The notes: generated from the letters alone by a model not told the origin. Numbered from the stretch's first letter, positions 7,171 through 26,015 are shown. The stretch: 64,000 nucleotides of DNA from Planctomycetota bacterium (GCA_044222185.1 JBGANV010000001.1:128001-192000), one strand, 5' to 3'. Translations and numbers: made by a program.

Positions 7171-9147
7171 ATGGAGACAGAGCTCTCGTCGAAACGGGCG
7201 AAGCTGGTGCTCCAGGGACCGACCGGAACGATCATCCACCCTCTGGACAAGGGCACGATCACCGCCGGACGAGGAACTACGAATACCCTGGTCGTCAATG
7301 ATCCGCGCGTGAGTCGCGTTCACGCGCGGCTCGAGTTCACACCACAGGGCTACCGCATCCTGGACGCCGGAAGTCAGAACGGCACCTGGGTGAACGGGAA
7401 CCGGGTCCAGACCGCGATCCTTCGCGACGGCGACGTCGTGCAACTCGGCGCCACACGACTGACCTACCGAGAGGACGAAGACGCGTCGTCCGTCATCGTC
7501 TCTCCAGCAAAGCTCGATCCCGAATCCACGAACGAGTTCACACTCACCGAAGTGGGCCGACGCGCACCCGAGGACGCACCCCCTGCCGATCTCGCCGAGC
7601 GGTTCCATCGAGTCGCCGAGTTGATGCGAGCCATCTCCGGTGCGGTGGGTTCGGACCGGTTCTTCGATCAGCTCATCAACGCCGCCGTGGACCTCACGTC
7701 CGCCGAGCGCGGGTTCATCATCGTGAACACGAGGCAAGGCATGGAGTTTCGTGCGGCACGGAACATCGGGCAGGAAGACAGACGCGGGCCCGAGTTCGAG
7801 GTGTCGTGGTCGATCGCCGTGAAGGTCGGCACGACGGGCGACGGCGTCTTGCTCGTCGACGCGCTCCATGACGAGCGATTCCGCGCCATCGAGAGCGTGG
7901 AGTCGCTCGGACTTCGGTCCGTGCTCTGCGTTCCGATCCGAAGCGAACTCGGCATCCAAGGTGTCATCTACCTGGACAACCGCCTCCAACTCGGCGCATT
8001 CACCGCCGACGACCGCGCGGTGATCGACGTCCTCGCGGACCAGGCCGGCGTCGTTCTCGGGCAGGAGCGTCTCTCGCGTGACCTGAAGGCCCGGCAGCAG
8101 GAGGTCGAATCGCTCAACCGGCGGCTGAAGGAGAAGCTCTCCGAGCAGGACACCGAGCTGACGCGGATGCGTGCCGAACTGCGCGCAGGCCGTGTGGAGG
8201 CGGACGCAGGCTTCCAGCCGCTGATCGGAGGATCGGCGCGCATGGACGAACTTCGCAGCCTGATGCGCAAGATCGCGCCCTCGGAGCTTCCCGTCCTCGT
8301 CTTCGGCGAATCCGGCACCGGCAAGGAACTCGTCGCACGGTGCATTCATCAGAGCGGGCCGCGAGCCAACTCGGAGATGGTCTCCGTGAATTGCGCCGCG
8401 TTCCCTGAGGGGTTGCTCGAGGCCGAGTTGTTCGGCCACGTTCGCGGCGCCTTCACGGGTGCCGATCGCGCCAAGAAGGGCCTGCTGGAAGCGGCCCATG
8501 GCGGGACCCTGTTCCTCGACGAGGTCGAGTGCATGAGCCCGGGCATGCAGTCGCGACTCCTGCGAGTCCTCCAGGAGGGTGAGATCCGCCCCGTGGGCGC
8601 GCAACAAAGCCTGAAGGTGGACGTCCGAGTGATCGCGGCCAGCAACCAGGATCTGCGCAAGATGGTCGCGGACGGCACGTTCCGCGAGGACCTCTACTAC
8701 CGACTACGCGTCCTCCAGGTGAACATCCCGCCGCTCCGCGACCGCCGGGAGGACATCGCGATCCTCGTTGCGCATTTCATCGAGAAATACGCGCCTTCCG
8801 TCACGGTGTCGGCTGAGGCTCTCGATCTCCTCATGTCGTACAGCTGGCCCGGGAACGTCCGGGAACTGGAGAACGAGATCCGCCGCTGCGCGGTGATCGC
8901 CGGACCCGTCATCGGCGTCGAGGGGTTGTCGAAGCACATCAGTGACTCGACGCGCATGCTCATCGGGGAGGAATCGAGCTTCCATGACCTCGGAGATCTG
9001 GTCAAGATGGTCGAGAGCCGCGAGATCCAGAAGGCGCTGAAGAAGAGTGCGGGCAACAAGACACGGGCGGCGGACCTGCTCGGAATCTCCCGCTTCACGC
9101 TCCAGCGAAAGCTCGACAAGTACGGGATCGCGGCAGAGGACGACTGA
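7171..9147 (+). CDS. Sigma54-dependent enhancer-binding protein with FHA and GAF input domains
   Basis: FHA (AGRG, SRVHA, SQNGT), GAF (RSVLCVPI..GVIYLDNR), coiled coil, AAA+ (GESGTGKE, GAFTGA, LFLDEV, FREDLYYRL, WPGNVRELEN) and Fis HTH. Confidence 0.95.
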   Translation: METELSSKRAKLVLQGPTGTIIHPLDKGTITAGRGTTNTLVVNDPRVSRVHARLEFTPQGYRILDAGSQNGTWVNGNRVQTAILRDGDVVQLGATRLTYREDEDASSVIVSPAKLDPESTNEFTLTEVGRRAPEDAPPADLAERFHRVAELMRAISGAVGSDRFFDQLINAAVDLTSAERGFIIVNTRQGMEFRAARNIGQEDRRGPEFEVSWSIAVKVGTTGDGVLLVDALHDERFRAIESVESLGLRSVLCVPIRSELGIQGVIYLDNRLQLGAFTADDRAVIDVLADQAGVVLGQERLSRDLKARQQEVESLNRRLKEKLSEQDTELTRMRAELRAGRVEADAGFQPLIGGSARMDELRSLMRKIAPSELPVLVFGESGTGKELVARCIHQSGPRANSEMVSVNCAAFPEGLLEAELFGHVRGAFTGADRAKKGLLEAAHGGTLFLDEVECMSPGMQSRLLRVLQEGEIRPVGAQQSLKVDVRVIAASNQDLRKMVADGTFREDLYYRLRVLQVNIPPLRDRREDIAILVAHFIEKYAPSVTVSAEALDLLMSYSWPGNVRELENEIRRCAVIAGPVIGVEGLSKHISDSTRMLIGEESSFHDLGDLVKMVESREIQKALKKSAGNKTRAADLLGISRFTLQRKLDKYGIAAEDD

Positions 9148-9192: not shown

Positions 9193-10302
9193 ATGACACC
9201 TGCATCTCCGAGTTCGTCTTCCGCTTTCGCTTCGCGTGCCACCCGCGGTTGCGGTTCGACCCCGTTGCTCGTCCTTCTGGCATTCCTCGTCGCGGCGATG
9301 CCGGTTGCCGCGCAAAAACCAAAGCCGGATCCGAAGGCGAAACCGGCACCGGCGCCCGTCGAGACCAAGCCGGTGGAGCCGCCGGCACCGGCCAATCCCA
9401 AACTGAAGCGTGAAGTGGATTCGCTTTCCGCCGCCGTCGGGCAGCCTCTGACGGTCGTGGAGGGGAAGTACTTCGACTTCGCTGCAACGCTCACGCCGGC
9501 CGACGTGAATGTCCTCATGGACGTCGCCGACAAGTGCTTCGCCGAATGGACGCGCATCACCGGCGTCGAGAAGGCGGAGCGCATGTTCGACGGGCAGAAG
9601 TGTCTGATCGTCGTGTGCAAGAGCTCGCAGCAATACAAGCTCGTCGGCCCGTGGTACGAGAAGACCTACCCCGATGGGGGCGCGCAGCCCGCGATGCAGA
9701 GCGTGACGTATTTCCCATTTCCATACCCCAGGTGCATGATCGCGATGCACCTGAAGCCCGCGGACGTGAACGGGCTCAAGAACAACGTCGCGCATGAGAT
9801 CGGCCACATGCTGATCTACCGCCACGACTTCAACTACAACTTCTCGCCGGTCTGGCTCACGGAGGGATTCGGCTCGTGGCTCGAGGGCAAGGTCCTCGGC
9901 CTCACCAACTGCTACTGCTCCTCGGGCGGTTACGGCGACCACGCCGCGGCCCTGGAGAAGATGAGCAACCTCGAGTGGGCGAAGTGGAAGGCCGGTCTGA
10001 AGGCCTCCGTGAAGGCCCGCCAGGACAAGAACCTCAGCCAGATCATTCCCATGCAGCTCAGCGACATGAGCACGGCGGAGGTGGGGAAGGCGTGGTCGGT
10101 CGTCGACTACATGGTCAGCACGGATGCGGCGAAGTTCACGAAGTGGCTCAGCCTCGTGAAGAAACACTGGCCGCAGCCGCCCAAGTACGAGTGGTACCCC
10201 GCGAAGGGTGAGGCCCAGAAGAAGGCACTCCAGGAGGCCTGGGGCATCGACATCAACGCCCTCGACGATGCCTGGCGCACCTATGTCGACACCCGGTACT
10301 GA
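9193..10302 (+). CDS. Secreted zinc metallopeptidase-like protein (gluzincin/peptidase MA fold)
   Basis: Signal peptide ..LLVLLAFLVAAMPVAA-Q, Pro/Lys linker, AHEIGH (HExxH) and downstream WLTEGFG third-ligand motif. Alternative start 9181. Confidence 0.7.
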   Translation: MTPASPSSSSAFASRATRGCGSTPLLVLLAFLVAAMPVAAQKPKPDPKAKPAPAPVETKPVEPPAPANPKLKREVDSLSAAVGQPLTVVEGKYFDFAATLTPADVNVLMDVADKCFAEWTRITGVEKAERMFDGQKCLIVVCKSSQQYKLVGPWYEKTYPDGGAQPAMQSVTYFPFPYPRCMIAMHLKPADVNGLKNNVAHEIGHMLIYRHDFNYNFSPVWLTEGFGSWLEGKVLGLTNCYCSSGGYGDHAAALEKMSNLEWAKWKAGLKASVKARQDKNLSQIIPMQLSDMSTAEVGKAWSVVDYMVSTDAAKFTKWLSLVKKHWPQPPKYEWYPAKGEAQKKALQEAWGIDINALDDAWRTYVDTRY

Positions 10303-13300
10303 GCCGTTCCCGGAGGTTCCTGGGTTCATACTCGAAGCAGAAATCGGGCGTGGTACGTCGGCGCGCGTGTTCCGCGCGCGGCAGCAGGCGCTGGATCGGC
10401 CGGTCGCCCTCAAGGTGATCACGACTCTCGGCGACGAGGGAAAGAAGCGCGCGCTCCGACTCTTCCGCGAGGCACGCCTCGCTGGAGCGCTCGATCATCC
10501 AGGCATCGTTCGCGGCATCGACGCCGGAGACTCGGGCGAACTCTGCTGGTTTGCCATGGAACTCGTCGAGGGTCGCACGCTTCAGTCGATCCTCGACGAC
10601 CGCGGTCCGCTCCCGTGGCAGAAAGCCATCTCCATCGGACTGGAGCTACTGGATGCGCTCGGCCATGCGCACCGGCGCGGAATCATCCACCGTGATCTCA
10701 AACCGTCGAACATCCTCATCGGGACGGATGGCCACGCGCGACTCCTGGACCTGGGCCTGGCGCGGCGGGACGCGGAACCAAAACTGACGCACGAGGGCGC
10801 GACGGTCGGAACGCCGAAGTTCATGGCACCCGAGCAGGCGCGCCAGCCTACGGCGGTGGATGCGCGCGCGGACATCTTCTCCATGGGCGCCGTCCTCTAC
10901 CGAGCGATCGGGGGCGTCGCGCCCTTCGAGGGAGAGACCGTCGCGGCCGTGCTCACGCGCTTGTTTTATGACGACCCGATTCCGCTCACGGCGCTGCGAC
11001 CCGAGACGCCTCCCGCGGTCTCGCTCGTCGTCGGAAAGGCCCTGGAGAAGAAGCCGGAACATCGGTTCCCGGACGCGACCGCACTGTCCGTCGCCCTGAG
11101 GGAGGCGGCGCGGATGACCGAGCGCCCGGCGAGCCCGGCGAGGCGGATTGCTGCTGGCCTGGCGATCGTCGCTGCGGCTTGTGCATTGATCATCGTCGCC
11201 TGGATCCGCATGCACGAGCAGGAATCGCCGCAACCGCCGCCGCCGAGTCCCCGGCCCGAGTCGCGCGTGACCGTTCCCCTCGTCGCGGAGTTCATCCTCC
11301 CGAGACACCCCGAGCTCAGTCCCCTGGACCGCGCGCTCCGCGCCGCGGCCGCGGCCGAGCAGGCGACGCCGTCAGCCGCGCTCGACCACGACTTCGAAGC
11401 CGCCGTTGCGCCACTGCGCGCCGACTTGCGAAGTGCTGCCGCGGCGTTCGTCAGCAACATCCGGCGCGTTGCTCTGACGTCTGGCGTGGCCACTGCCCGT
11501 GACCACCTGCGGCAGATGCGCGATCGCATGGTGTCCGACCTCCAGCTCGATGACGGCGTCACGCTCCCCGTGTCGATCGCGCGGATCCTCGATGCGGTGG
11601 TGAAGGAATGCCAATCGCGCTTCGAGGCCGACCTGGAGAAGGAGCAGGCCGACGTGGCGTCGGACATCGAGACGGAGCTGCAGGAGCTTACGTCGAGGCC
11701 CGAGGCACATGGCTGGACCCTCCGCGAGCAGGATGCTCGGGTGAAGGCCGTGCTGGGGTCACGCGCCCTCTTGATCGATGGTCGCCGGCTCGACGCCGTG
11801 CTGGCGCGCCGCGATGCCGTGCTCAAGCGACTTGCAGAGATTCCAGCCGAGGCGGCGGAGCGCGGGCTCCAGCGCGCCAAGGGGCTGATCGACCAAGGGA
11901 AGTTCCGTGCCGCGCGCACGCTGCTCGAGTCGTTCACGTCGGCTGAGTCCGATGCCCTGGCGCCTGGTGCGAGCGTTCAGGCCGCGCAGATGCTCGCTGG
12001 AGTCGATGCTGCCGAGGCTCGTTGGACCGCGGCCCTCGATGCGCTCCCAGCGCTCCTCTTGCGGGGGAACGACGCGCGCCTCGATGCGGCGGCGCGCCGG
12101 CAGCGCCTCGAACGGCTCAGGGTGCAGACGACGGCGCTCTCGAGCGGCGCTGACGAGGTATCCGGCGGTGCCGAGCGCCTCGGGATCGTGCGGGAGCTTC
12201 TCGCGACCGCCGAGGCGGCCGCACGAGTTCGGGACGATCTCCTCGAACGACTCGGCGCGGCACCACCGCCAGCCGTAGGGCTTCCGATCCGATTGTGTTC
12301 GGGCGTGACGCTCGACGGTCGGATCGTCGTCGGGCGTGAAGGCAGCAAGGTCGCATTGCGCACCGCGGCGGAGAGGTCCAGGGAACTTCGCGACGTGGAG
12401 GACATCGCCCCCGTCGGACTGTCGGCGATTCTCGCGTTGTATGGGCACGAGCCGGCGCCCATGCCGCTCGCCCTCCTCGAGCATTGGGATCGCCTCGACG
12501 ACCATGCGCTGGCACGCCTCCAGAAGTTGCCCCCGTCGGCGACGCGGGATTGGCTCCTCGATGCCGTCGAGGCGTCGATGCAAGCGCACCTCGCCAGCTT
12601 CGAAACGGAAGAAGAGCGAAACGCCTACCGGTTGCTTCTCCAGGCCAACCGTCGCGCCGGCGAGGGCGCGCACGCCAAGGTGCGCGAGATCGGCCAGTCG
12701 ATCCTCTCGAACCCCAAGCTCACCGGCTCGGCGTTCATGCTCAGGCACCGGGCGGAGCTCGAGAAACTCGTCCAGCACGCGGCCAAGGAAGAAGCTCGGA
12801 GCGCGAGGCTGCGCCCATTCGGAAAGGCGGCGGAGATCCGGGATCGCAAGCGCGGCGTCGTCCGCCTCTCGTGGACGTTCGGCGTTGGTCAACCGGCGGA
12901 CGGGCTCCTTCGGCCGGCGGGAAGCATGCTCACGGCTGCGGGGCTCGTGTGGCCGGGCAAGCGCGCCGATCCTGCGTCGTTGCCGGAGGTCGCGCCAGCC
13001 TTGCAACTCAGTTTGCCGCCGGGCGTCGCGAACTACCCGTTCACCCTCACCGCCGACGTCGTTCGCGATCGCGAGCAGCCGCTGCAATTCACGGCGATCT
13101 CCTACGGCGACCTGGCCTTCCTGTGTATCGGCCAGCTCCGCGACGTGGGCGCATTCGGGGGCGTGCGGTTGCACGGACTCGAGCGCGATCTCCTCCAAAC
13201 ACACGACGTCGATCTGGCGCTGTTCGCCGCTGCCTCGGTCGCCGAGGTGCGCCAGAGGATCCGGCCGCCGACGGGCAGGCCGATCAATGCGCTCGTTCGC

Positions 13301-13492
13301 GGCGAGACCGCGCGCTTGACGCTCTCGACCGTCGGAGATCCATTTGCCGCCGTCGACGAGCAACGGTTCCCACTCTTCGGAGATCGGCGGCCCGTCAACG
13401 GCGCTACGTCCGTCGAGATCCGGCTGCCACCGGGGGCGGCATTGCGATCCCTGACCATCGAACTTCCGTTGATCCCGTCGGACGACGAATGA
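10283..13492 (+). CDS. Membrane-spanning Hanks-type Ser/Thr protein kinase with a large C-terminal extracytoplasmic region
   Basis: IGRGTSARV, VALK, HRDLKPSN, DLG, GTPKFMAPE, DIFSMG; TM helix IAAGLAIVAAACALIIVAWI; about 750 aa mostly helical C-terminus. Confidence 0.92.
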   Translation: MSTPGTEPFPEVPGFILEAEIGRGTSARVFRARQQALDRPVALKVITTLGDEGKKRALRLFREARLAGALDHPGIVRGIDAGDSGELCWFAMELVEGRTLQSILDDRGPLPWQKAISIGLELLDALGHAHRRGIIHRDLKPSNILIGTDGHARLLDLGLARRDAEPKLTHEGATVGTPKFMAPEQARQPTAVDARADIFSMGAVLYRAIGGVAPFEGETVAAVLTRLFYDDPIPLTALRPETPPAVSLVVGKALEKKPEHRFPDATALSVALREAARMTERPASPARRIAAGLAIVAAACALIIVAWIRMHEQESPQPPPPSPRPESRVTVPLVAEFILPRHPELSPLDRALRAAAAAEQATPSAALDHDFEAAVAPLRADLRSAAAAFVSNIRRVALTSGVATARDHLRQMRDRMVSDLQLDDGVTLPVSIARILDAVVKECQSRFEADLEKEQADVASDIETELQELTSRPEAHGWTLREQDARVKAVLGSRALLIDGRRLDAVLARRDAVLKRLAEIPAEAAERGLQRAKGLIDQGKFRAARTLLESFTSAESDALAPGASVQAAQMLAGVDAAEARWTAALDALPALLLRGNDARLDAAARRQRLERLRVQTTALSSGADEVSGGAERLGIVRELLATAEAAARVRDDLLERLGAAPPPAVGLPIRLCSGVTLDGRIVVGREGSKVALRTAAERSRELRDVEDIAPVGLSAILALYGHEPAPMPLALLEHWDRLDDHALARLQKLPPSATRDWLLDAVEASMQAHLASFETEEERNAYRLLLQANRRAGEGAHAKVREIGQSILSNPKLTGSAFMLRHRAELEKLVQHAAKEEARSARLRPFGKAAEIRDRKRGVVRLSWTFGVGQPADGLLRPAGSMLTAAGLVWPGKRADPASLPEVAPALQLSLPPGVANYPFTLTADVVRDREQPLQFTAISYGDLAFLCIGQLRDVGAFGGVRLHGLERDLLQTHDVDLALFAAASVAEVRQRIRPPTGRPINALVRGETARLTLSTVGDPFAAVDEQRFPLFGDRRPVNGATSVEIRLPPGAALRSLTIELPLIPSDDE

Positions 13493-13887
13493 CCGCGCGC
13501 GACGTCCATCTCATCGGTTCGTCGGGCATGTTCGAGGGCGTCAGGGCCGTCCTGCGGCCTGGCGATCGCGTCGTGGTCGGTCGAAGCCGCCACGTGGAGC
13601 TGAGCGCCGTCCGCACTCCTCTCGCGTTGCGTGTGGGCCGTGAGAAACTCGAGCGCAACTCCTCATTCCGCCGGTTGTCGCGCCGCCACATCGAACTCGA
13701 TTTTGCCGACGGCGAGAATCTCGTGCTGAAGAACCTGTCGAAGAACGGGTTCATGCTCGATGGAAATCGCGTGACCACGGCCGTGCTCTCGCTGGATGCG
13801 ATGGAGGCCGGACCCCATGTCGTTCGGTTCGGGACCAACGAGGAGATCCGGATCGAACTGGGTGTCGCGGACGGAGGGGGTTCGTGA
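13489..13887 (+). CDS. Stand-alone FHA domain protein
   Basis: ATGA overlap with the kinase; VVGRS...SRRHI...NLSKNGF FHA motifs. This is the C-terminal part of track ORF 12484..13887. Confidence 0.8.
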   Translation: MTARDVHLIGSSGMFEGVRAVLRPGDRVVVGRSRHVELSAVRTPLALRVGREKLERNSSFRRLSRRHIELDFADGENLVLKNLSKNGFMLDGNRVTTAVLSLDAMEAGPHVVRFGTNEEIRIELGVADGGGS

Positions 13888-14049
13888 GCTGAGGGGGCGC
13901 CCCGCGGGACCCACGCGCGTCGCTGCGGACCTGTCGGCCCGGCCTCGATCGGACCTTCCAAGGTGAGGGGGCCGCGCAGGTTCAAGAGGCCGGCCGGGTC
14001 GACGCCGGACCCCCGGGGTCGCCCGTCTCCGACGCGAACCTGACCTGGA

Positions 14050-14077
14050 TTTACATCCCGGTGCGGCTCCCTATAAT
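14050..14077 (+). promoter_or_regulatory. Sigma70-type promoter of the uvrA-XPB operon
   Basis: TTTACA-N16-TATAAT, an AT-rich island in GC-rich DNA, about 65 nt upstream of the GGGAG SD / GTG start. Confidence 0.7.
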
Positions 14078-14142
14078 CCCCGAATTCGTCGCGGCAGGTC
14101 CACTGTCGGAGCGGTTGCCAGCGGCGCGTCGATGGGAGCGAA

Positions 14143-17100
14143 GTGAGCCAGGTTCAACGCGAGATCGTCGTCCGCGGAGCGCGCGAGCACAATCTGAAAG
14201 GCGTCGATCTGCGGCTGCCTCGGGGTGCCCTGGTCACGATGACGGGCGTGTCCGGGTCGGGAAAATCGTCGCTCGCCTTCGACACGATCTTCCAGGAGGG
14301 GCAGCGGCGGTTCGTCGAGTCGCTCTCCTCCTACGCGCGGCAATTCCTCGGCCAGACCGAAAAACCCAAGGTCGAGCACATCGAGGGGCTGTCGCCCACG
14401 ATCTCCATCGACCAGAAAACGGTGAATCGCAGCCCGCGGTCGACCGTCGGGACGGTGACCGAGCTCTACGATCACCTCCGGCTCCTGTTCGCCCGCCTCG
14501 GAACGCCCCATTGCCCCAGCTGCGGCAAGCGCGTCGCGGCGCAGACCTCCGACCAGATCATCGACCGGATCCTCTCTGCCTACACCGGGCGCGCTCTTCT
14601 GTTCCTTGCCCCTCTGATCCGCGACCGCAAGGGGGAGTACCGCAAGGAACTGGAGGAGCTGCGGATGAAGGGCTACGTCCGCGCCCGGATCGACGGCGAG
14701 GTCCGGCGCCTGGACGAGCCCATCGAACTCGCGCGCTACGAGAGACACACGATCGAGGTCGTCCTCGACCGGCTTCGGATCGAGCCCGAAAAGCGGTCGC
14801 GGGTCGCCGAGTCGATCGAGCAGGGACTGAAGTTGGGCAAGGGGCTCGTCTCCGTCCTCGACGGCGACGCGATCGAGACGTTCTCGACCTCGTTCTCATG
14901 CCCCGACTGCAACGTGAGCCTGCCGGAGATGGAGCCGCGCACGTTCTCGTTCAACAGCCCGCACGGTGCGTGCGAGGCCTGTGACGGGCTCGGCGTCACG
15001 GCCGACGTCGATCCGGGGTTGGTGATCCCGGACCCCAAGCTGACGATCGACGAAGGCGCGATCGCACCCATGCGAGGCCAGTCGTGGACTCTGAGACATC
15101 ACTTTCGCGAGGAGGTGATGCGGCAGGTCTGCACGCACTTCGGAATTCCGCGGAACGTGCCCTGGAAGGCGTTGCCGGCACGCGCCCGAAAAATCCTGCT
15201 CGACGGGAACGCGGACGAGGAGATCACGATCTCGCGTCGCTACGAAGGCGAACGGCTGAAGGTCCGAAGTACCGAGCGGACGGCGTGGAAGGGAGTCTTG
15301 ACGATCCTCCGCGAGGTGCATGGGCGCCTGAAAGGGAAGTCGACGGAGGCGTTCATGTCGCCGGGATCCTGCCGCGCTTGCGGCGGGACCCGGCTGAAGC
15401 CGGCCGCGCTCTCCGTTCGCTTCCACGAGAAGAACATCGGGGACCTAAGCCGGTGGACCGTCGTCGAGATCCACTCGTTCTTGAAGGCCACGACCTTCGA
15501 GGGATCGCAGGCGACGATCGGCGATCCGATCAAGCGCGAGCTCATCACGCGCCTGAAGTTCCTCCTGGACGTCGGGCTTGGCTACCTCACCCTCGACCGG
15601 AACGTTTCCTCGCTCTCGGGCGGAGAGTCGCAGCGCATCCGCCTCGCGACCCAGGTGGGTTCAGGCCTGCGCGGGATCCTCTACGTCCTCGACGAGCCGT
15701 CGATCGGCCTTCATCAGCGCGACAACCGCCGCTTGATCCAAACCCTCGAGCGTCTGCGCGACGTCGGCAATACGGTGATAGTCGTCGAACATGACCGCGA
15801 GACGATGGAGGCCTCCGACTGGCTCGTGGACGTCGGGCCCGGTGCCGGGCGCGCGGGCGGCGAGATCGTCGCGACGGGACTCATCCCCGATCTCGTGCGT
15901 GAGTCGCGTTCGATCACCGGCGCGTTTCTCGATGGTCGCGAACGGATCGACCCGCCGGCACGACGTCGCACCGGGAACGGCAAGGCGATCGGCGTCCGCG
16001 GCGCTCGCGCCCACAACCTCAAGAACGTCGACGTGGACCTGCCCCTCGGTACGTTCATCGCCGTGACCGGAGTCTCGGGGTCCGGCAAGAGCACGCTGAT
16101 CAACGACATCCTCAAGTGCGCCCTCGCGCGGGAACTCCACAACGCCGAGACGAGGCCGGCCGAGCACGACTCCATCGTAGGCATCGAGCACCTCGACAAG
16201 GTGATCGAGATCGACCAGTCTCCCATCGGGCGGACGCCGCGCAGCAACCCTGCGACATACACCAAGCTCTTCGACGAGGTCAGGGCCCTGTTCGCCTCCC
16301 TGCCGGAGTCGAAGACTCGCGGCTACGAGCCCGGCCGCTTCTCCTTCAACGTGAAGGGCGGCCGGTGTGAGGCCTGCGGCGGCGCGGGTGTGAAGCTCAT
16401 CGAGATGCAATTCCTCGCCGACGTCGAGGTGCCGTGTGACGTTTGCGAGGGGCGCCGCTTCAACCCGGAAACGCTCGAGATCCGCTATCGGGGGAAGTCG
16501 ATCACCGACATCCTCGCGATGACCGTAGGGGAGGCGCTCGACTTCTTCGCGAGTCACCCGTCGATCAAGCGAAGTCTCGCGACGCTCGAGCGCGTCGGGC
16601 TCGGGTACGTTCAGCTCGGGCAGCCTTCGACCACGTTGTCCGGCGGTGAAGCGCAACGCGTGAAGTTGGCAACGCAGCTTCAGCGACCGCCGACAGGCCG
16701 CACGCTCTACATCCTCGATGAGCCGACGACGGGGCTCCATTTCCTCGACGTTCGCCGCCTCGTGGAGGCCTTGCAAGCACTCGTGGACGCGGGCAACACG
16801 GTCCTCGTCATCGAGCACAACCTGGACGTCGTTCGTTGTGCCGATTGGATCCTGGATCTTGGTCCGGACGGCGGCGCGGGCGGTGGGCAGATCGTGTTCA
16901 ACGGCAGCTATGCGGCGATCCTCGAGAACACCGAGTCAGCGACCGCCGACATGCTCCGCGAGATCGAGAACCCGGCGCCGCACGCGGCGCGACCGCGGCG
17001 TCCCGTCGTCGACCACGCGCTCGACGGCGACGTCGTTTTGCGGGGCGCACGCCTCCACAACCTGAAGAACGTCGATGCACGCTTCCCTGCGGGACGCATG

Positions 17101-19941
17101 ACCGTCGTCACCGGGCCGTCCGGGTCGGGGAAGACCAGCCTCGTCTTCCACACGCTTTTCGCGGAGGGGCAGCGGCGATTCGTCGAGTGCTTGTCGACCT
17201 ACGCACGGCAGTTCCTCGGCAGGCTCGAACGACCGCCCCTCGATTCTTTGGAGGGACTCGCACCGTCGATCGCCATCGACCAGAAGAACGCGAGCCGCAA
17301 TCCGAGATCGACGGTGTCGACGACGACCGAGATCCACGACTACTTGCGCTTGCTCTATGCTCGCGTCGGAATCCCTCACTGCCCGACGTGCGGGAAGGAA
17401 GCCCGTGCGTATCCGCCCGACATGGTCGTGCGCGCGCTCCTGGAACGCCACGCGGATGCCAAGGGGCGCCTCGTCGCTCCGCTGTGGCTGAAGGGCTTCC
17501 CAAAGCCCCTCCGCTTCAAGAAGCCCACCGACCTCAAGGTCCTTCGAGAGGAGCTCATGCAGGAGGGCTGCGTCCGCGTCCTGATCGACGGGGAAGAGAA
17601 GCGGCTCGACGAGAACCCGACGGTGACGGCGCGGACGAAGGAAGTCCTGCTCGTGCTGGATCGTGTCCAGATCTCAGCGCGATCGAGGACCCGCCTCCTG
17701 GATTCCGTCCAGCAGGCGTACTCGGCCGCCCGAGGGGTTCTGGCATTCCAGCCCGTGGATGGTGAGCGCGAGTGGTTCGGCGAGCACCCGTCCTGCGTGG
17801 GCTGCGGGTTCTTCTTGGACGAAGAGCTCACTCCGAGGATGTTCTCGTTCAACAGCCACGTCGGAGCGTGCGACAACTGCCACGGCCTGGGGTCGGAGCT
17901 GAAGTGTGACGTCGACCGTCTGGTGACGCGGCCCGAACTGCCGCTGTTCGAAGGCGCCATGATCGACAAGCCGGGCGACTTTCTCAGTCGTGCGGACGGC
18001 TACTTCCGCGGAGTCGTCGAGCAATTGGCCGACCATCTCGGTTTCAACGTGAACAAGCCCTTCGGTTCGCTCACGGCGAAGGCGCGACGCGTACTCATGT
18101 TCGGGTTCGACGAGAAGCTCGACGTGACGTTCGAGACCAGCGGCGCGCGCAAGAAGTCGACGTACGCCATGAGCGTGGCGTGGAAGGGTTTCGCGAGATA
18201 CATCGAGGAGTGGTATCGGACGTCCGACAACGACGAATGGGTGGAGATCCTCGGCCGGGTCATGCGTGCGGACACCTGCCCCGCATGCCAGGGTGAACGC
18301 CTGAAACCGGCGTTCCGCGCGGTGAAACTCGGCGGAGTGACGCTCGCAGAGGTGGGGCGGATGACCGTCGCCGGTGCGCGAGCGTTCTTCGACGGACTGC
18401 GGTTCGGGGACTCGGCGGCGCAGATCGCGGATCAGCCCGTGAAGGAGGCTCGCAACCGTCTCCGCTTCCTCGACGACGTGGGCCTGGGCTACCTCGAACT
18501 GGGGCGGTCTGCGGGCACGTTGTCGGGTGGCGAGGCGCAGCGCATTCGACTTGCGACGCAGATCGGCAATCGGCTGACAGGCGTCATCTACGTCCTGGAT
18601 GAGCCTACGATCGGACTTCACCAGCGCGACAACGAGCGGCTCCTGGGTACGCTGCGGGAACTGCGAGACCTCGGCAACACGATCGTGGTCGTCGAGCACG
18701 ACCGCGAGACGATCGAAGTCGCGGACTGGGTCTTGGACCTCGGGCCAGGCGCCGGGCGCCACGGCGGGGAGGTCGTCTACGCGGGCGAGCCGGCCGCACT
18801 CGCTGAGAAGGGCGAGTCGTTGACCGCTCGATATCTGCGCCGCGACCTGTCCGTGCCGACGCCGCCAGCCCGCCGGGCCGGATCGGGCAAGGAGTTGATC
18901 CTCCGGGACGTGACCGTCAACAACCTGAAGTCGGTCGACGTGTCGATCCCCGCGGCGCGGCTCGTGGCCGTGACGGGGGTTTCCGGGTCCGGAAAATCCA
19001 GCCTCGTGATGGATACGTTGGCGCCGGCCATGGCCCTCGCCACGGCGCGGCGGCGTGTCAAGGTGCAAGGGCTGGGCAGGCTCGAGGGGGCCGAGGCGTT
19101 CGACGAGTGCATCATCGTCGACCAGGCGCCCATCGGCACCTCGCCCAAGTCGAATCCTGCGTCCTACACGAAGATCTTCGACGAGATCCGGGAGATCTAC
19201 TCGACGATGCCCCTCGCGCAGCAGCGCGGCTACACCCCAGGCCGGTTCTCCTACAACACCGGTCCCGGGCGCTGCGGAACCTGCGATGGCCGCGGAAGCC
19301 TGAAGATCGAGATGCACTTCCTGCCGGACGTCTGGATCACCTGCGAGGCGTGCCGGGGCCGCCGGTACAACCCTGAAACGCTCGCCGTCGAGTACAAGGG
19401 GAAGTCGATCGCGGACGTCCTCGACATGGAGGTGAAGGAGGCCCGCGCGTTTTTTGCCAATCACAGGAGGATTGCAGGACCGCTCCAGTTGCTCGAAGAT
19501 GTGGGGCTCGGCTATCTGGAACTCGGCAGACCGGCGACGACCCTTTCAGGCGGCGAAGCCCAACGAATCAAGCTCGCAAGGGAGCTGGCGCGACGGTCAC
19601 ATGGGCGTACGCTCTACTTGTTGGATGAACCGACGACCGGCCTCCATTTCGATGATGTCGCGAAGCTCGTTGGAGTGCTTCAGCGACTCGTGGATGCCGG
19701 AAACTCGGTCGTGCTGATCGAGCACAACTTGGACGTCATCAAAGCGAGCGATTGGGTGATCGACCTGGGCCCCGAGGGGGGAACGGGTGGCGGCGAGGTC
19801 GTCTCCGTCGGGACTCCCGAAGACGTGGCGGCGGAGCCGCGATCTCATACGGGGCGCTTCCTGGCGAAAGAGCTGGGCCTCGTGGCCCCGGCAGGCGTGA
19901 AGCCCCCGACACCGAGAGAGCGGCATGAAGCTGCCAACTGA
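14143..19941 (+). CDS. uvrA: Excinuclease ABC subunit A, tandem UvrA-UvrA fusion (1932 aa)
   Basis: Two complete UvrA units: four Walker A motifs (GVSGSGKS x3, GPSGSGKT), four LSGGE signatures, duplicated zinc fingers and duplicated GAR.HNLK starts; junction near nt 16960-17030. Confidence 0.97.
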
Positions 19942-21634
19942 GCGCATCGGTCCGCCGCCGCTGATCGTCCAACGCGATCGCACGGTCCTGCTCGACCTGC
20001 ATGCGCCCGGTGCCGAGGAGTGTCGGACACACCTGTCGCGCTTCGCGGAGCTGGTCAAGAGCCCGGACCACCTCCACACGTATCGCCTTTCACCGCTGTC
20101 GCTGTGGAACGCCGCGGGGATCGACGCCGCCGAGATCACGGCGTTCCTCGACGCGCATAGCCTCGTGAGGACGCCGAAGGAAGTGAGGGCTTTCGTCGAG
20201 GACGTTCTCTCGCGGACGGGACGTGTGCGTCTCGTCCGCCGGGAGCGGGCGCTCGTTCTGGATGTAGATGCCGACCTCCGCGACACCATCGTTGCACTTC
20301 CCGGCGTCGACAAGCACACGCAGGTCCTGGAAGACGGGACCATCCTCGTCGCTCCCGCGAGCCGCGGTGAGATCAAACAAGCGCTCGTGAAAGCCGGGTA
20401 TCCCGTCGACGACCTCGCGGGCTACGTCGCCGGTGACGGTCTGACGCTTTCGATTCGTCCGGAGACCCGGGGCGGGCTCGCGTTCTCCGTGCGCGACTAC
20501 CAGGAGTCGGCCGCGCAGGTCTTCTACCAGCGCGGAACGGAGCGCGGCGGGGCCGGCGTGATCGTCCTTCCATGCGGGGCCGGCAAGACCCTCGTCGGCA
20601 TACGGGTGATCGACCTCTACCAGACGCAGACGCTCGTGCTGACGACGAATCGAAGCGCCGTCGCCCAGTGGATTCGCGAACTCCTCGATCGAACCACGCT
20701 GACCGCCGACCAGGTGGGAGAGTACACGGGAGAGGTGAAGGAAATCCGCCCGATCACCGTGTCGACGTACCAGATCCTCACGTACCGCAAGTCGGCAACG
20801 GACCCCTTCACGCACTTCGACCTGTTCCATCGCAACAACTGGGGCCTCATCGTCTACGACGAAGTGCACCTGCTCCCCGCGCCCGTGTTTCGAGTGACGG
20901 CGGAGTTGCAGGCCCGGCGTCGGCTCGGACTGACAGCCACGCTGGTTCGGGAGGACGGCAAGGAAGCGGACGTCTTCAGCCTCGTCGGCCCGTGCCGCTT
21001 CGATCTGCCCTGGCGAACCCTCGAGAAGGGCGGCCACATCGCCGAGGCGCACTGCGTCGAAGTACGCGTGCCACTCGCCGACGAATTGAAGGACCGCTAC
21101 GAGCTCGCCGACAAGAAGGAGCGATTCCGACTGGCCTCTGAGAACGAGTTGAAATTCTCGGTCGTTCGGGCCTTGCTGGATCGGCATCGCGAGGACCGTG
21201 TGTTGGTCATTGGTCAGTTCCTGCGTCAGCTCGCGTTGCTTCGGCGGCTCATCGAAGCGCCGTTGATCACGAGCAAGACGCCACATCCGGAGCGGGAGCG
21301 GCTGTATCAGGAGTTTCGAAAAGGGACGGTCCCGGTCCTGATCGTTTCCAAGGTCGCCAACTTCGCGATCGATCTCCCGGACGCGAATGTCGCAATCCAG
21401 ATCAGCGGAACGTTCGGCTCTCGCCAGGAAGAGGCGCAGCGCCTCGGGCGCGTTCTCCGCAAGAAGCAGAACGGAGCCCACGCGCTCTTCTATTCCGTCG
21501 TGACGGCCGAATCGCGCGACCAGGACTTCTCGGCCCATCGCCAACTGTTCCTGGCCGAGCAAGGCTACCCATACAAGATCGTGTCCTTCCGCGAAGTCGT
21601 GGGTGTGGACCAGGTTCAGGAGGTCGTTCGGTGA
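19925..21634 (+). CDS. XPB/Ssl2/Rad25-family SF2 DNA helicase/translocase
   Basis: N-terminal Helicase_C_3-like domain (FAELVKSPDHLHTYRLSPLSLWNA), LPCGAGKT, DEVH, GLTAT, XPB RED motif (LVREDG), QRLGRVLR. Confidence 0.95.
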   Translation: MKLPTERIGPPPLIVQRDRTVLLDLHAPGAEECRTHLSRFAELVKSPDHLHTYRLSPLSLWNAAGIDAAEITAFLDAHSLVRTPKEVRAFVEDVLSRTGRVRLVRRERALVLDVDADLRDTIVALPGVDKHTQVLEDGTILVAPASRGEIKQALVKAGYPVDDLAGYVAGDGLTLSIRPETRGGLAFSVRDYQESAAQVFYQRGTERGGAGVIVLPCGAGKTLVGIRVIDLYQTQTLVLTTNRSAVAQWIRELLDRTTLTADQVGEYTGEVKEIRPITVSTYQILTYRKSATDPFTHFDLFHRNNWGLIVYDEVHLLPAPVFRVTAELQARRRLGLTATLVREDGKEADVFSLVGPCRFDLPWRTLEKGGHIAEAHCVEVRVPLADELKDRYELADKKERFRLASENELKFSVVRALLDRHREDRVLVIGQFLRQLALLRRLIEAPLITSKTPHPERERLYQEFRKGTVPVLIVSKVANFAIDLPDANVAIQISGTFGSRQEEAQRLGRVLRKKQNGAHALFYSVVTAESRDQDFSAHRQLFLAEQGYPYKIVSFREVVGVDQVQEVVR

Positions 21635-23658
21635 ACCCCGCGACGGATCTCGTTTCGTTCTCGAGTGCGGAACTCGCGGATCTCTACAGATACTGGACCG
21701 GCGACGGTTCCGGGCCGTCGTCGGACGAGGATTCGATTCGTGATGCGCTCGGCCGGCTCATGTCCGAGCGCGGCCGGGTGATGACGCGCTTCCGCGACCT
21801 CCCACGGCGGCTGCGCGACGTGCTCGGGTGGATGCTCCGACAAAAGGACTTCCGGATCGCCACGCGCGCAGCGTCCGACAAGAACGGCGGCGCCGAGACG
21901 CCTGCACGGAACTTCGAGCTCGACAGCATCCTGGCGGAGCTCAAGCGTCGAGGGTTCGTCGTCGAGGAGCGCGACCGGTCGTGGGTCCGATACCACGAGC
22001 CCGTTTGGCGCGTCCCGCAGGCCCTCGGTGAACTGCTGGTGTCGGAGATCAAGGGCTCGATCCGCACGGTCGAGACCCAGATCTCGCTCCGCGCGCACGT
22101 TCGTGCGCTGGCGAAGGATCTGCTCGATCATCGGCTCTCGACCTTCGGGATCTCGTTCGCCGACGGCCGCGACCGCGCCGAGCTCGTGCAACCCCTCGCA
22201 TCGACGGAACGTCTCGAAGATGCGATTCGCCGCGTTTCAGATCCACGGTTGCGCGACGCCGTGTGCCGAGCGCTCGACGAGCATGGCGGAATGCTCGACC
22301 GGGGGCAGCTCGAGCGCCTGGAACTCCTTCCTGAGAACCTGGAGCCCTGGCGCGCGGAGCTGGAGCACCTGCTCCTGGGCACGATCGCCGACTTCGACCT
22401 CGCCGAGGTCGGCCTCCTCTTCAAGCCCGGCTCGATGATCATCTTCCACGAGCTTGCGCGAACACACCTGAATCGCGGACTCGAGGTCCACGTCGATGAA
22501 GCGCCCGAGGCTCCGGCCGAGCCGCTCGCCGACCTGTCCGCGATACGATCGTTCCTCGATCACCACAGCGTTCGAGCGACGCGCGAAGGCTCCCTCTACC
22601 GCGCAACGGCCCGCAAGATGGAGTCGGAAGTGTTGTCGCCTGGGAGCCGCCCGGTCTCGCAGGAGGCCGCGCTGGGATTCCTGCTGGAGTTCCTCTTCGC
22701 GGCGGACCTCGTCCGGGTCGACGACGACCAGCGGCTCCGTCCACGCCCCAGCTGGAAGACGTTCGAGGAACTTCCGCCGACCGCGCGCGGCGAGCAGTTG
22801 CTGCGCTTCGTTCAAGAGGATCTGCGGTCGATGAAGGCCGAGTTCCACCACGGTCGTCTTCGCCGGGTTTTCCTGACGATGTTGAAGGAGACGGGCGCGG
22901 GGCGGTGGATCGACTTGCGGAACCTGGCCCAGCTGGCGCGGAACTTCTACCTGGCGACGCTCGACGTCCGCTCGACGGCAGACCGATTCCAGCGTCGTTA
23001 TCAGTACACACCGATCCCGCCGCTGGTTTCCCTCGCCCTCGTCACGCGCGAACTCGTGGAGTTTGCGGGGTCACGGCTCGCCACGGCGGGACTCGTCGAA
23101 CTCCATGCGCCAGAGGACGGGCGGCCATCGATCCGACTCACGCGGCTCGGCTCCGCCGTCCTGGGTCTTGCCGCAGACAACGCGGGCACGACCGTCGACG
23201 GAGGGCTGATCGTGACGGCCGACTTCGAGATCGTCGTGTTTCCCGGCGCCGTCGAATACGACGTGACGCACGCACTGGGGCGCTTCGCGCGCCGCGAGAA
23301 GGCCGACGTGACCGTTCACTACCGGATCTCGGAACGATCGATCCAGGAGGCCGTCGCCGCTGGGATGGCGGCGTCGGAGATCCTCGCACTCCTGCGTCGT
23401 CATGCGCGGTACGACGTGCCTCAAAACGTGGTCGCTTCGTGCGAGGCCTGGGCGCGCGCGGTGACGGTCCTCGAGAGCCGCCGCACGATCGTGCTGCGCG
23501 CCGCGTCGAAGGCCGCCCTCGATGCCGCGATGAAAGTCCGCGAGCTGAAGGCCATCGTTGTCGAGCGGATCAGCGACACGGTCATCGAGGTGAACGAGGA
23601 CCCGACGACCGTGCGGATCGCAGAGGCGCTGCGAACCCAGGGCTTCTTCCTGCGGTGA
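21631..23658 (+). CDS. XPB-associated protein with a C-terminal Helicase_C_3 / Tfb2(p52)-like domain
   Basis: GTGA overlap with XPB; C-terminal GGLIVTADFEIVVF...YRISERSIQEAVAAGMAASEILALLRRHA..VPQNV...W. Confidence 0.8.
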   Translation: MNPATDLVSFSSAELADLYRYWTGDGSGPSSDEDSIRDALGRLMSERGRVMTRFRDLPRRLRDVLGWMLRQKDFRIATRAASDKNGGAETPARNFELDSILAELKRRGFVVEERDRSWVRYHEPVWRVPQALGELLVSEIKGSIRTVETQISLRAHVRALAKDLLDHRLSTFGISFADGRDRAELVQPLASTERLEDAIRRVSDPRLRDAVCRALDEHGGMLDRGQLERLELLPENLEPWRAELEHLLLGTIADFDLAEVGLLFKPGSMIIFHELARTHLNRGLEVHVDEAPEAPAEPLADLSAIRSFLDHHSVRATREGSLYRATARKMESEVLSPGSRPVSQEAALGFLLEFLFAADLVRVDDDQRLRPRPSWKTFEELPPTARGEQLLRFVQEDLRSMKAEFHHGRLRRVFLTMLKETGAGRWIDLRNLAQLARNFYLATLDVRSTADRFQRRYQYTPIPPLVSLALVTRELVEFAGSRLATAGLVELHAPEDGRPSIRLTRLGSAVLGLAADNAGTTVDGGLIVTADFEIVVFPGAVEYDVTHALGRFARREKADVTVHYRISERSIQEAVAAGMAASEILALLRRHARYDVPQNVVASCEAWARAVTVLESRRTIVLRAASKAALDAAMKVRELKAIVVERISDTVIEVNEDPTTVRIAEALRTQGFFLR

Positions 23659-23762
23659 GCTGACGCGCGCCTGAAGGCGGGCGCGCCGTAGGTCCTCCGC
23701 CGGCCCGTCGGCGCGCCGCGCGGGAACCGACGGAACGATCTCCAGCGATTCGGCGGGGCCTG

Positions 23763-26015
23763 TTAGGTCCCGAACTCGGCGAGGCCGTCGACGATGAGCT
23801 CGACCTTGTAGTTCGCGATGCCGGAGGGCAGGGGAACGGGGACGTCCTCGCCTACGCGGCGACCGAGGATCGCCATGCCGAGCGGTGACAGGTAGGAGAG
23901 GATCCCCTTTTCCTGGTCGGCATCCCAGGGTCCCAGAAGCGTGTAGATCTGTCGGCGGTTCGTGCCCTCCTGAGAGAGCGTGACCTTGGAACCCACGGTG
24001 ACGTGTTCGCCGTCCTGCATCGTGTGTTCGATCACACGCGCACGATTGAGATCTCGGGCCAGGTCCTCCGACTTCCGGGTGAGCTGGGTCTGTTTCTCGA
24101 TCGCCGCGCTCCACTCCGCGTTCTCGGAGAGGTCGCCGTACGAGGCGGCGCGGCCGATCTCGGCGGCGTTCTCTGGGATGTCCACGTTGACGAGGTGCTC
24201 GTATTCCTGCTGCTTGCGGAACAACCCCTGCTCGGTCGTGTAGATGACGTTCGCGTCCACACCACCTGGAAGAGCCGACGCTTCCTCGTCCTGCCGCGCC
24301 AGTTCGGGCCGCGTGCGGAGCATGTACGCGATCATCTTGTCGCGGATGTCGCGCGGGAGGCTCCTGTTGCTTCGGATCACGGTGCTGACGTTGCGGCCCT
24401 CGGTCTCCGTCGCCGCGACGAAGGCGTCCTTGACGACGCTGTAGTTCCCGGCCTGGATGAGGTTGGCCAGGGTCTTGCCCACCTTGCGGAGCTCGGCGTC
24501 TTCCTCACGGTAGAGCTTCTGCTCCAGGTGACTGTGCAGGATCACGATCTTCTCGAGCAGCGTCGGAAGCGGGATCTGCGGCACGCCCTCGGGGAGCTTC
24601 TCCTGCAGCTGGTGCCGCGCAAAGAAGGTGAAGGCCAGGGGGAAATCCCGGAACTTCCCGATGACGTCCTTCTCGATGCGGTCGACGACGTCCTTGCGGC
24701 CATGGCGGACGAGAGCCGACAGGGCGGCGTCGGCCGTTTCCGGCTCGCCGCGGAGAATGACCGTCCGATACAGCTCGGCCCAATCCTTGTCGCCAGATTC
24801 GCGAAGCACCTCGAGCGCCTCGATGCGATGCCCGGCGATCGGAATCGAGGGGAGCGCTTCCATGACGCTCTTGTGGTTGCTGCACAGAAGCTGGGGCGCG
24901 GCCTCGGGCGGAATGGTGATGCTCTTGTAGATCTGCTGCGCTTCCTTCATGAGGAAGGCGAGCGAAATCCGGCAGCCGAGTGGCACGTCGCTCTTCGGCG
25001 ACAATCCGGCCATCAGGACCTGGGCGACGGCGGTGACCGCTTCCTCTCCATCCGAGTGGTCCTGTGCCTCCTTCAGAAGGTCGCGGAAGTACTTCACGCG
25101 TTTGACGTCGTTATCCAGGAGGCGGAGGTCTCGGAGGCAGTTCTGCGAGTACCCGCGCATCTCGGGCGCGAGCTCGATGATCGGGTTGCTTCCCGGTGCA
25201 ACCGTGACGTCCGATGCAGTTTTCAGCTTCAGACGTGCCTTCTGCCACCAGCGGGACCAATCGCCGGCCGGGATGATTCCGTCGGTGAGTCGATCGCGCA
25301 GCTCGCGGAGGGTTGCCTTGTTGCGCCGGCTTCGGAGTGCCGCTCGGATGAGCTCCGTCGTATCGCCTTCGACCATGAGCGTGAGCTCGGCCAGCCGGTC
25401 GAGCTTCATGGCGCGCAGGTCATTCGAGTCGACGAACTCGGTGATGTTTCGTGCCATCTCCATCGACAGTCGATGGCCCTTCTTGGTCCCGAAGTCGATC
25501 ACGACCGACGCCTGCTCGGCGTCGACCATCACGATGCGGCCGGTGCCCCAGCCGGCCGGGTGGTGGACGTACCGCCCTTCGCGGAACGCGAAGTACGTAT
25601 CCATCTTGTTGACGGCCGTCTTGAGATCGGGGTCAGCCTCGATCTTGCTGTGGCGCAGGAAGATCGGGAGGTGCGGGTTGTCTTTGTGGATCGCCTTGTA
25701 GGCAGTCAGCAGCCCGTGGCGAAGGATCCGCTCCTTCGGTGCGATCTCCGCCATCTTGCGAAGGGAGACGAGGGCGTTCTCGAATTGGCCTTGCTCGAGG
25801 AAGCGCGCGGTGAGCCCGGAGAGGAGCTGTCCCGCCTTCTCGAAGTTGCCTATGGACTCGAGTCCGGCAATCCCTTGCATGAAGACACCCACGTCTTCGG
25901 GCGAGCTCTCGGTCAGCTCCGCCCACAGGGCGTCGAAGAGTTGGTGCTTTCCTTGTTCTGCGTACTCGCGAAGCTGACGTTTGCGGCCGTCCGGGGTCGG
26001 GTTCTGTAGACTCAT
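23763..26015 (-). CDS. greA: Long-form transcription elongation factor GreA (about 590 aa N-terminal extension)
   Basis: C-terminal Gre domain (EIGRAASYGDLSENAEW, VTVGSKV, YTLLGPWDAD, SYLSPLG); the N-terminus has helical repeats and an HPAGWGTG Tudor-like motif. Confidence 0.88.
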   Translation of the reverse strand: MSLQNPTPDGRKRQLREYAEQGKHQLFDALWAELTESSPEDVGVFMQGIAGLESIGNFEKAGQLLSGLTARFLEQGQFENALVSLRKMAEIAPKERILRHGLLTAYKAIHKDNPHLPIFLRHSKIEADPDLKTAVNKMDTYFAFREGRYVHHPAGWGTGRIVMVDAEQASVVIDFGTKKGHRLSMEMARNITEFVDSNDLRAMKLDRLAELTLMVEGDTTELIRAALRSRRNKATLRELRDRLTDGIIPAGDWSRWWQKARLKLKTASDVTVAPGSNPIIELAPEMRGYSQNCLRDLRLLDNDVKRVKYFRDLLKEAQDHSDGEEAVTAVAQVLMAGLSPKSDVPLGCRISLAFLMKEAQQIYKSITIPPEAAPQLLCSNHKSVMEALPSIPIAGHRIEALEVLRESGDKDWAELYRTVILRGEPETADAALSALVRHGRKDVVDRIEKDVIGKFRDFPLAFTFFARHQLQEKLPEGVPQIPLPTLLEKIVILHSHLEQKLYREEDAELRKVGKTLANLIQAGNYSVVKDAFVAATETEGRNVSTVIRSNRSLPRDIRDKMIAYMLRTRPELARQDEEASALPGGVDANVIYTTEQGLFRKQQEYEHLVNVDIPENAAEIGRAASYGDLSENAEWSAAIEKQTQLTRKSEDLARDLNRARVIEHTMQDGEHVTVGSKVTLSQEGTNRRQIYTLLGPWDADQEKGILSYLSPLGMAILGRRVGEDVPVPLPSGIANYKVELIVDGLAEFGT

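Follow-up and report, generated by a model that had tools for sequence, protein, structure and literature searches.

A packed planctomycete operon places bacterial XPB and a p52/Tfb2-like partner behind a tandem UvrA

Can a bacterial UvrA work together with an XPB-type helicase and a p52/Tfb2-like protein? This question is raised by three consecutive genes in a 64,000-nucleotide stretch of DNA from a Planctomycetota bacterium (GCA_044222185.1 JBGANV010000001.1:128001-192000; the whole stretch is called the window below), where a uvrA of double length is followed by genes for a bacterial XPB and for a p52/Tfb2-like partner. An earlier note, made from the sequence alone, had proposed a hybrid nucleotide excision repair system. 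On balance, we read the locus as an operon with translationally packed genes, conserved in a planctomycete lineage of the Phycisphaerae type, which co-expresses a housekeeping tandem UvrA with an XPB-partner module, the module probably assisting UvrA-initiated repair alongside UvrB.

The three open reading frames (ORFs) fill 14143-23658 on the + strand, all with high third-position G+C. uvrA and XPB overlap by 17 nt, XPB and the partner gene by 4 nt (GTGA), and the ORF and junction coordinates agree with the overlaps described earlier. A Shine-Dalgarno-like GGGAG is found at 14134-14138, ahead of the uvrA start. The genes form a packed unit with no space for an internal promoter, and a scan of 13400-24200 showed no further sigma-70-like site within the unit that might uncouple XPB from uvrA.

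The arrangement recurs in related genomes. A genome scan seeded with 20 XPBs gave at least 80 loci, those listed having an XPB at 51-59% identity; all locus counts refer to these 80 listed loci. Nineteen are from Planctomycetota, the remainder from Chloroflexota, Bacillota, Spirochaetota, Fibrobacterota, Gemmatimonadota, Acidobacteriota, other phyla and a few archaeal metagenome-assembled genomes (MAGs). Calling uvrA by phmmer at E<=1e-20, we found it directly upstream of XPB and on the same strand in nine loci (L001, L002, L003, L011, L014, L018, L020, L030 and L031), full-length in five and cut by a contig end in four. All nine are Planctomycetota, and three are labelled Phycisphaerales or Phycisphaeraceae. 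The partner is present in each of the nine with 571-720 bits, compared with 28-181 bits elsewhere, the exception being a planctomycete locus without uvrA (L051, 462 bits). In a FastTree phylogeny of 79 XPBs, from which L072 and L077 were left out (XPB match below 480 residues) and in which all support values are Shimodaira-Hasegawa-like (SH-like), the nine and the XPB of the window fall into one clade (SH-like support 94), and none of 500 label shuffles was as clustered. That the arrangement is old is seen from the terminal branches in this clade, which measure 0.14-0.66.

Gene packing is likewise kept among the nine. An overlapping start codon is available at every uvrA/XPB junction, with an overlap of 4 nt in eight loci, whereas L003 shares the 17-nt overlap of the window. 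For two of the nine, L014 and L020, an XPB start 41-44 nt downstream agrees better with the alignment. At the XPB/partner junction, seven loci offer a 4-nt overlap; in L001 the partner start either overlaps by 8 nt or follows after 4 nt, and in L018 the two genes are 13 nt apart. All candidate gaps at the two junctions are of 65 nt or less. The flanks vary between related loci while the triad stays, a GreA-like gene being the only neighbour shared, and that with one locus. Metagenomic matches were compared by the length of their longest contig, equal lengths serving as a proxy for one shared contig. By this measure UvrA, XPB and partner matches coincide in four cases (11,753, 16,805, 17,137 and 24,298 nt), and UvrA and XPB matches in 10 further cases. 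The adjacency is therefore not confined to one genome but marks one deep planctomycete clade, and we have little doubt that the operon is real and under selection there.

The second gene encodes an XPB, as had been proposed. The XPB equivalog model NF045503 scores 789.7 bits (cut-off 610) with all of its positions 1-548 of 548 covered, and the protein has an N-terminal domain (PF13625, residues 13-127) and, downstream of it, a superfamily 2 helicase core (residues 187-556); the Pfam matches are Helicase_C_3, ResIII and ERCC3_RAD25_C. Invariant in 20 aligned XPBs are GAGKT (G218-T222) and DEVH (D312-H315), which we take to be motif I and motif II of the helicase, together with R342-E343-D344. 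Judged by these residues, the encoded XPB very probably has intact ATPase motifs. The name RED motif is used in PMC13024598.

The likeness of the third gene product to p52/Tfb2 was borne out for its XPB-binding domain and, more tentatively, for its overall architecture. The XPB N-terminal domain family PF13625 is the only Pfam match (residues 526-647, 63.6 bits, cut-off 34.2). An exhaustive search at E<=0.001 returned 1210 representative relatives, including proteins of 770-915 aa. An AlphaFold2 model built with 62 relatives reached a predicted local distance difference test score (pLDDT) of 92.7 and a predicted template modelling score (pTM) of 0.79. When this model was compared with the PDB using Foldseek, ranks 1-19 were all chains of TFIIH entries (289-453 residues, E 8.6e-10 to 1.4e-4), among which a sequence profile search confirms 8ebt_D as p52, 7o4i_2 and 7zs9_2 as Tfb2, and 6trs_A as a fungal p52. 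Alignments span 512-571 columns, except for the 6trs crystal chains (418 and 357) and 7nvv_2 (383). TM-scores are low (0.28-0.35 per target) and the root-mean-square deviation is about 20 A, as expected if the domains are alike but stand at different angles. XPB chains follow at E 2e-4 or worse over about 165 columns, with the XPB N-terminal domain lying on the C-terminal domain of the partner.

Sequence profiles point to the same domain. The partner family profile matches human XPB at residues 60-173 (numbering of chain 8ebt_A, E 4e-4) and also p52 at residues 346-373 (as numbered in chain 28jm_D) and Tfb2 at residues 377-405 (as numbered in chain 5sva_a), with E 2e-3 to 8e-3; PMC6422496 places the human p52 clutch at residues 306-399. 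These results strongly indicate that the C-terminal domain of the partner is homologous to both the XPB N-terminal domain and the p52 clutch. The protein also appears to have the layout given for p52 in PMC6422496, a winged-helix array followed by a clutch.

Orthology with p52 over the full length is plausible, and several results weigh against it. The Pfam Tfb2 family (PF03849) does not match the partner of the window at E<=0.1. It is detected in 10 of 62 relatives, at 12.1-22.5 bits (all under the cut-off of 34.5) and over profile positions 187-358 only; in one Atlas cluster of partner relatives, Tfb2 is assigned to 10% of the members. A separate model of residues 1-506 (pLDDT 93.1) has no PDB match at E<=0.001. 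Its similarity to p52 is weak, with E 0.009-0.015 for p52 chains, E 0.02-0.03 (probability 0.93-0.94) for the crystallized N-terminal half of p52, and E 0.009-0.03 (probability 0.57-0.94) overall, and the winged-helix array of the RNA polymerase III subunit RPC62/C82 scores as well as p52.

Binding of the partner to the XPB N-terminal domain was examined by complex prediction, using full XPB, partner residues 486-675 and three controls. The check that the earlier note had called for passes: the interface score (ipSAE) is 0.70, compared with 0.13 for the best control, and the mark applied is reached by 58 of 80 solved complexes and by 2 of 110 mismatched pairs. Runs have at least 93% of contacts in common, with a partner pLDDT of at least 78. 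The predicted interface joins XPB residues 14-26, 45-50 and 80-84 with partner residues 527-538, 557-561 and 593-610 and additionally contacts XPB residues 529-552; its stretches contain invariant or nearly invariant columns in both families. As modelled, it mirrors the pseudo-symmetric XPB-p52 dimer. Because the XPB-p52 complex is solved, this pass may partly be the model's memory of known structures, which counts against it, and the prediction is one of likeness, not of binding. Overall, it is highly likely that the partner is a regulatory subunit of bacterial XPB, held through the N-terminal-domain/clutch pair.

The first gene product matches the UvrA equivalog NF001503 in two full stretches of its 1932-aa chain (2537.5 bits, cut-off 1147) and TIGR00630 in two stretches (2445.4 bits, cut-off 729.8). 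Pfam finds UvrA_inter and UvrA_DNA-bind twice each, and both halves carry UvrB-binding and insertion domains. A motif count gives four Walker A, four LSGGE, four Walker B and 12 CxxC motifs, which is the full set for two units, and the halves are 47% identical. A covalent UvrA pseudo-dimer is thereby strongly indicated. The two UvrB-binding domains (PF17760) differ. The half 1 copy, matched with 124.9 bits, covers profile positions 1-106 of 109, and across 61 tandem UvrAs it is as conserved as its half (0.59 vs 0.60). That of half 2 (residues ~1090-1205) is partial, with 44.8 bits over positions 28-107 of 109, and forms the most variable part of its half (0.37 vs 0.55). Since only one of the two domains is well kept, the protein is probably an asymmetric pseudo-dimer with one UvrB site.

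The double UvrA itself turned out not to be special to this locus. According to PMC8567305, a double-length UvrA built from two uvrA units is the standard form in Planctomycetes. A homologue search by region scored 8000 candidates of 1062-3381 aa, of which 6709 match, and all double-length matches with a source name come from Planctomycetota. From this statement and these matches, the double UvrA is the phylum's housekeeping sensor. It matched the model for the chlamydial double UvrA, NF001885, below the cut-off only (1337.7 vs 3054 bits).

How, then, might the XPB-partner module relate to UvrA? In the mechanism that we favour, the partner would be bound to XPB through its homologue of the XPB N-terminal domain, the two domains pairing by their beta-sheets like those of XPB and p52 in TFIIH, and it would tune the XPB ATPase/translocase. 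UvrA and the pair would serve one damage response. The pair would most likely be an accessory double-strand DNA translocase, opening or remodelling DNA at UvrA-marked sites or clearing obstacles there, and it would add to UvrB, UvrC and UvrD rather than replace them. That the module serves UvrA-initiated repair in this particular capacity, as a translocase or opener beside UvrB, is in our estimate evenly poised. The packed operon, the conserved adjacency and the p52-like partner of the hybrid repair proposal stood up, while the tandem UvrA proved ordinary, a UvrB-binding domain is kept and the pair often occurs without uvrA.

This last point is the main weight on the other side. Among loci with at least 3 kb of upstream sequence, uvrA precedes XPB in five of 59 and is absent from 54, and six Planctomycetota loci with at least 1 kb upstream also stand without it. 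A partner-like gene lies on the same strand within 4 kb downstream of XPB in 36 of 62 loci with at least 2.2 kb downstream, in many phyla; pairs without uvrA are found in Sumerlaeota, Bacillota, Spirochaetota, Chloroflexota, Gemmatimonadota, other Planctomycetota and archaeal MAGs. Because the pair stands without uvrA in most lineages, it would have a role independent of uvrA. Among the listed loci, no further gene for repair recurs next to the triad, nor next to XPB in any phylum.

These counts feed the strongest alternative, co-expression without mechanistic coupling. Here an autonomous pair, whose job is unrelated to UvrA (e.g. strand annealing, or work where replication or transcription complexes stall), landed by chance behind uvrA in an ancestor of the clade and remained in place. 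It fits the presence of the pair without uvrA in many phyla and archaeal MAGs and the unrelated neighbours of XPB elsewhere (histidine kinase, ABC-F, ECF sigma factor), and it is also favoured by conservation across the 61 tandem UvrAs, where no conserved surface able to dock XPB was found. The degenerate UvrB-binding domain of half 2, considered as a conserved new docking site for XPB, is unsupported as it lies in the most variable region of that half. What the alternative leaves unexplained is that the arrangement, with its overlapping stop and start codons, is preserved throughout a deep XPB clade (10 of 10 members), and that a fused chain exists. As a rule, genes that are fused or tightly packed in one operon belong to a common pathway. 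The fused chain (P0309, metagenomic, from a 19,462-nt contig), found among 120 listed tandem UvrAs, has 2512 aa, with UvrA-UvrA joined to a complete XPB through some 30 linker residues. It could be a natural fusion or the product of a lost stop codon and, as a single record from one contig, could also reflect an assembly or sequencing error. We grant the uncoupled alternative a real but minority chance.

A more ambitious version of the accessory reading is two-motor excision repair. In this scheme, the tandem UvrA would mark the lesion and physically recruit the XPB-p52-like "mini-TFIIH", which would translocate on double-stranded DNA and so open the duplex, either ahead of the loading of UvrB or alongside it. 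We consider it possible but rather unlikely. Direct contact between the XPB module and UvrA is similarly doubtful; a physical or mechanistic link between UvrA and XPB is something we infer, the fusion protein being the sole extra hint.

Far less probable is repair independent of UvrB, in which UvrA passes lesions to the XPB-p52-like pair in place of UvrB in a lineage lacking uvrB and uvrC. A Pfam scan of 37 other ORFs across the window finds neither a UvrB nor a UvrC domain, as had been noted earlier, and the degenerate UvrB-binding domain of UvrA half 2 would suit this idea. Given the canonical UvrB-binding domain of half 1, however, absence from 64 kb says little, and the full score and undiminished conservation of that domain speak against the loss of UvrB. 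Pfam and NCBI model scans detect no nuclease encoded by the three operon genes. In addition, Planctomycetes with a tandem UvrA express the whole set: UvrA, UvrB, UvrC and UvrD were all detected in the Tuwongella proteome, as stated in PMC8567305. That the XPB module replaces UvrB is thus very improbable. An anti-phage defence system or mobile cassette of UvrA-like and helicase parts, suggested by matches of the UvrA chain to the PADLOC UvrA-like models mad3/mad8 and a weak match of XPB to PbeA, was rejected as the least credible reading, since UvrA and XPB pass the NCBI equivalog cut-offs for housekeeping proteins, the partner has no PADLOC match, G+C is even (0.65-0.69 across the region), and the triad stays among changing flanks of ordinary chromosomal genes (here LpxK, heptosyltransferase, a sigma-54 activator, Ser/Thr kinases, ArgRS, BipA, Rho and GDH).

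The coordinates of the operon and of the candidate control elements around it are collected in the table.

Table 1. Genes, domain and candidate control elements of the uvrA-XPB-partner locus, in window coordinates.
Feature	Position	Strand	Details
Sigma-70-like promoter candidate, TTTACA-16 nt-TATAAT	14050..14077	+	65 nt upstream of the uvrA start
Tandem uvrA	14143..19941	+	GTG start 14143, TGA 19939-19941; 1932 aa; half 1 ~14143-17007, half 2 ~17008-19941
XPB	19925..21634	+	ATG start 19925, TGA 21632-21634; 569 aa; bacterial XPB/ERCC3-type SF2 helicase/translocase
p52/Tfb2-like partner	21631..23658	+	GTG start 21631; 675 aa; winged-helix-type array (~1-515), then clutch-like domain
Clutch-like C-terminal domain of partner	23206..23655	+	Residues 526-675; XPB N-terminal domain homologue; predicted XPB-binding surface
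GC-rich hairpin	23665..23686	.	Between convergent partner and GreA-like genes; 9-bp stem; possible terminator

The earlier note had described a clear promoter ahead of the operon. The motif is present and matches 11 of 12 consensus positions, and it is the sole sigma-70-like site on either strand in 13400-24200. Shuffled sequences are expected to give 0.4 +/- 0.7 sites, so one site is not strong statistics, and the same scan upstream of uvrA finds sites in none of five related loci with a complete upstream region. Without a counterpart in these loci, the site is kept as a candidate only. An imperfect 13-nt palindrome (14001-14027, 77% complementary), a possible operator, ends 23 nt upstream of the -35 hexamer. 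Beyond the partner gene, the hairpin was rejected as a terminator; it folds no better than shuffles (z -0.09) and is without a T run.

Convergent with the partner gene lies a 750-aa ORF (23763-26015, - strand) which has GreA/GreB domains at residues 591-739 only, its first ~590 residues matching no Pfam family; a homologue occupies the same position in L003. Upstream, a eukaryote-type Ser/Thr kinase gene (10208-13492, 1094 aa) ends 650 nt before uvrA, and another is located at 30612-32408, both on the + strand. A MoxR-type AAA+ ATPase gene (52131-53120, +) is followed about 2.2 kb on by a gene for a 2700-aa VWA and TPR protein (55362-63464, +).

Two further observations concern XPB loci outside the operon clade. 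In five loci (three Bacillota and two Planctomycetota, among them L029, at 7686-8324), a gene for an ECF-type sigma factor is found directly downstream of XPB, and these loci have no partner at that position. A Thorarchaeota MAG (L054 9983-15123) and two MAGs of uncultured archaea (L019 and L043) encode a bacterial-type XPB 54-56% identical to that of the window, followed 1.7-3.5 kb further on by a p52-like gene; the two are separated in L054 by an RFC small-subunit-like gene on the other strand. Mycobacterial XPB, to which the earlier note ascribes a helicase-associated neighbour, is not represented, as no actinobacterial locus is among the 80 listed.

Compared with the XPB-p52(-p8) module of TFIIH, as described in PMC6422496, the bacterial pair shares an XPB N-terminal domain, a partner domain homologous to it which is predicted to bind XPB, and apparently the layout of a winged-helix array followed by a clutch; the beta-sheet pairing of homologous domains and the contacts to the end of RecA2 are predicted here. 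In contrast to TFIIH, the locus has no p8, p34, p44, p62 or XPD-type gene, and no separate p8-binding C-terminal domain is recognised in the partner. At 675 aa, the partner is also longer than p52 (~460-510 aa), its N-terminal part is weakly p52-like, by score it is not a Pfam Tfb2 protein, and it is predicted to be co-transcribed with a bacterial UvrA. The tandem UvrA resembles that of other Planctomycetes in its double length and its two uvrA units and differs in that, in one clade only, its gene heads an operon which continues with those for XPB and the partner. Relative to the UvrA2-UvrB2 complex, all UvrA modules are present and the UvrB-binding domain of half 1 is canonical, whereas one chain stands in place of a homodimer and one of two UvrB-binding domains is well kept.

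Among prokaryotic XPBs, that of Mycobacterium tuberculosis belongs to the same NCBI equivalog family, has the same domain set and is a 3'-5' helicase and DNA-dependent ATPase (PMC3353954). That 2012 study states that p52 and p44 homologues are not known from bacteria, that no other TFIIH subunit homologue exists there, and that XPB in bacteria probably works independently of any TFIIH-like complex; the p52-like partner family found here points the other way. Archaeal XPB-Bax1 is alike in that a prokaryotic XPB has a dedicated adjoining partner which modulates it. However, Bax1 is a nuclease and attaches to the thumb motif and HD2 (both points from PMC13024598), whereas the partner described here has no nuclease domain and is of the clutch type, with the XPB N-terminal domain as its predicted binding site.

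Tandem UvrA and bacterial XPB are both already known. In the open full text of PMC and bioRxiv, we found no paper on a bacterial p52 homologue or on a uvrA-XPB(-partner) operon. The function of bacterial XPB has been an open question since its discovery. Now that there is a widespread partner family which has the XPB-binding domain and apparently the layout of p52, the idea of a bacterial XPB holoenzyme can be put to the test in vitro, and a lineage which joins the pair to uvrA by operon packing, and once by fusion, singles out nucleotide excision repair as the pathway to test. The locus also bears on the origin of the XPB-p52 pair of TFIIH, for which the archaeal loci with XPB and a p52-like gene are relevant as well. 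If the recruitment scheme were true, the step from UvrA to a mini-TFIIH would be a bacterial counterpart of the hand-off from XPC to TFIIH, and the XPB-p52 core of TFIIH would be a prokaryotic invention predating eukaryotes, since Asgard-type archaeal MAGs carry the pair as do bacteria of many phyla.

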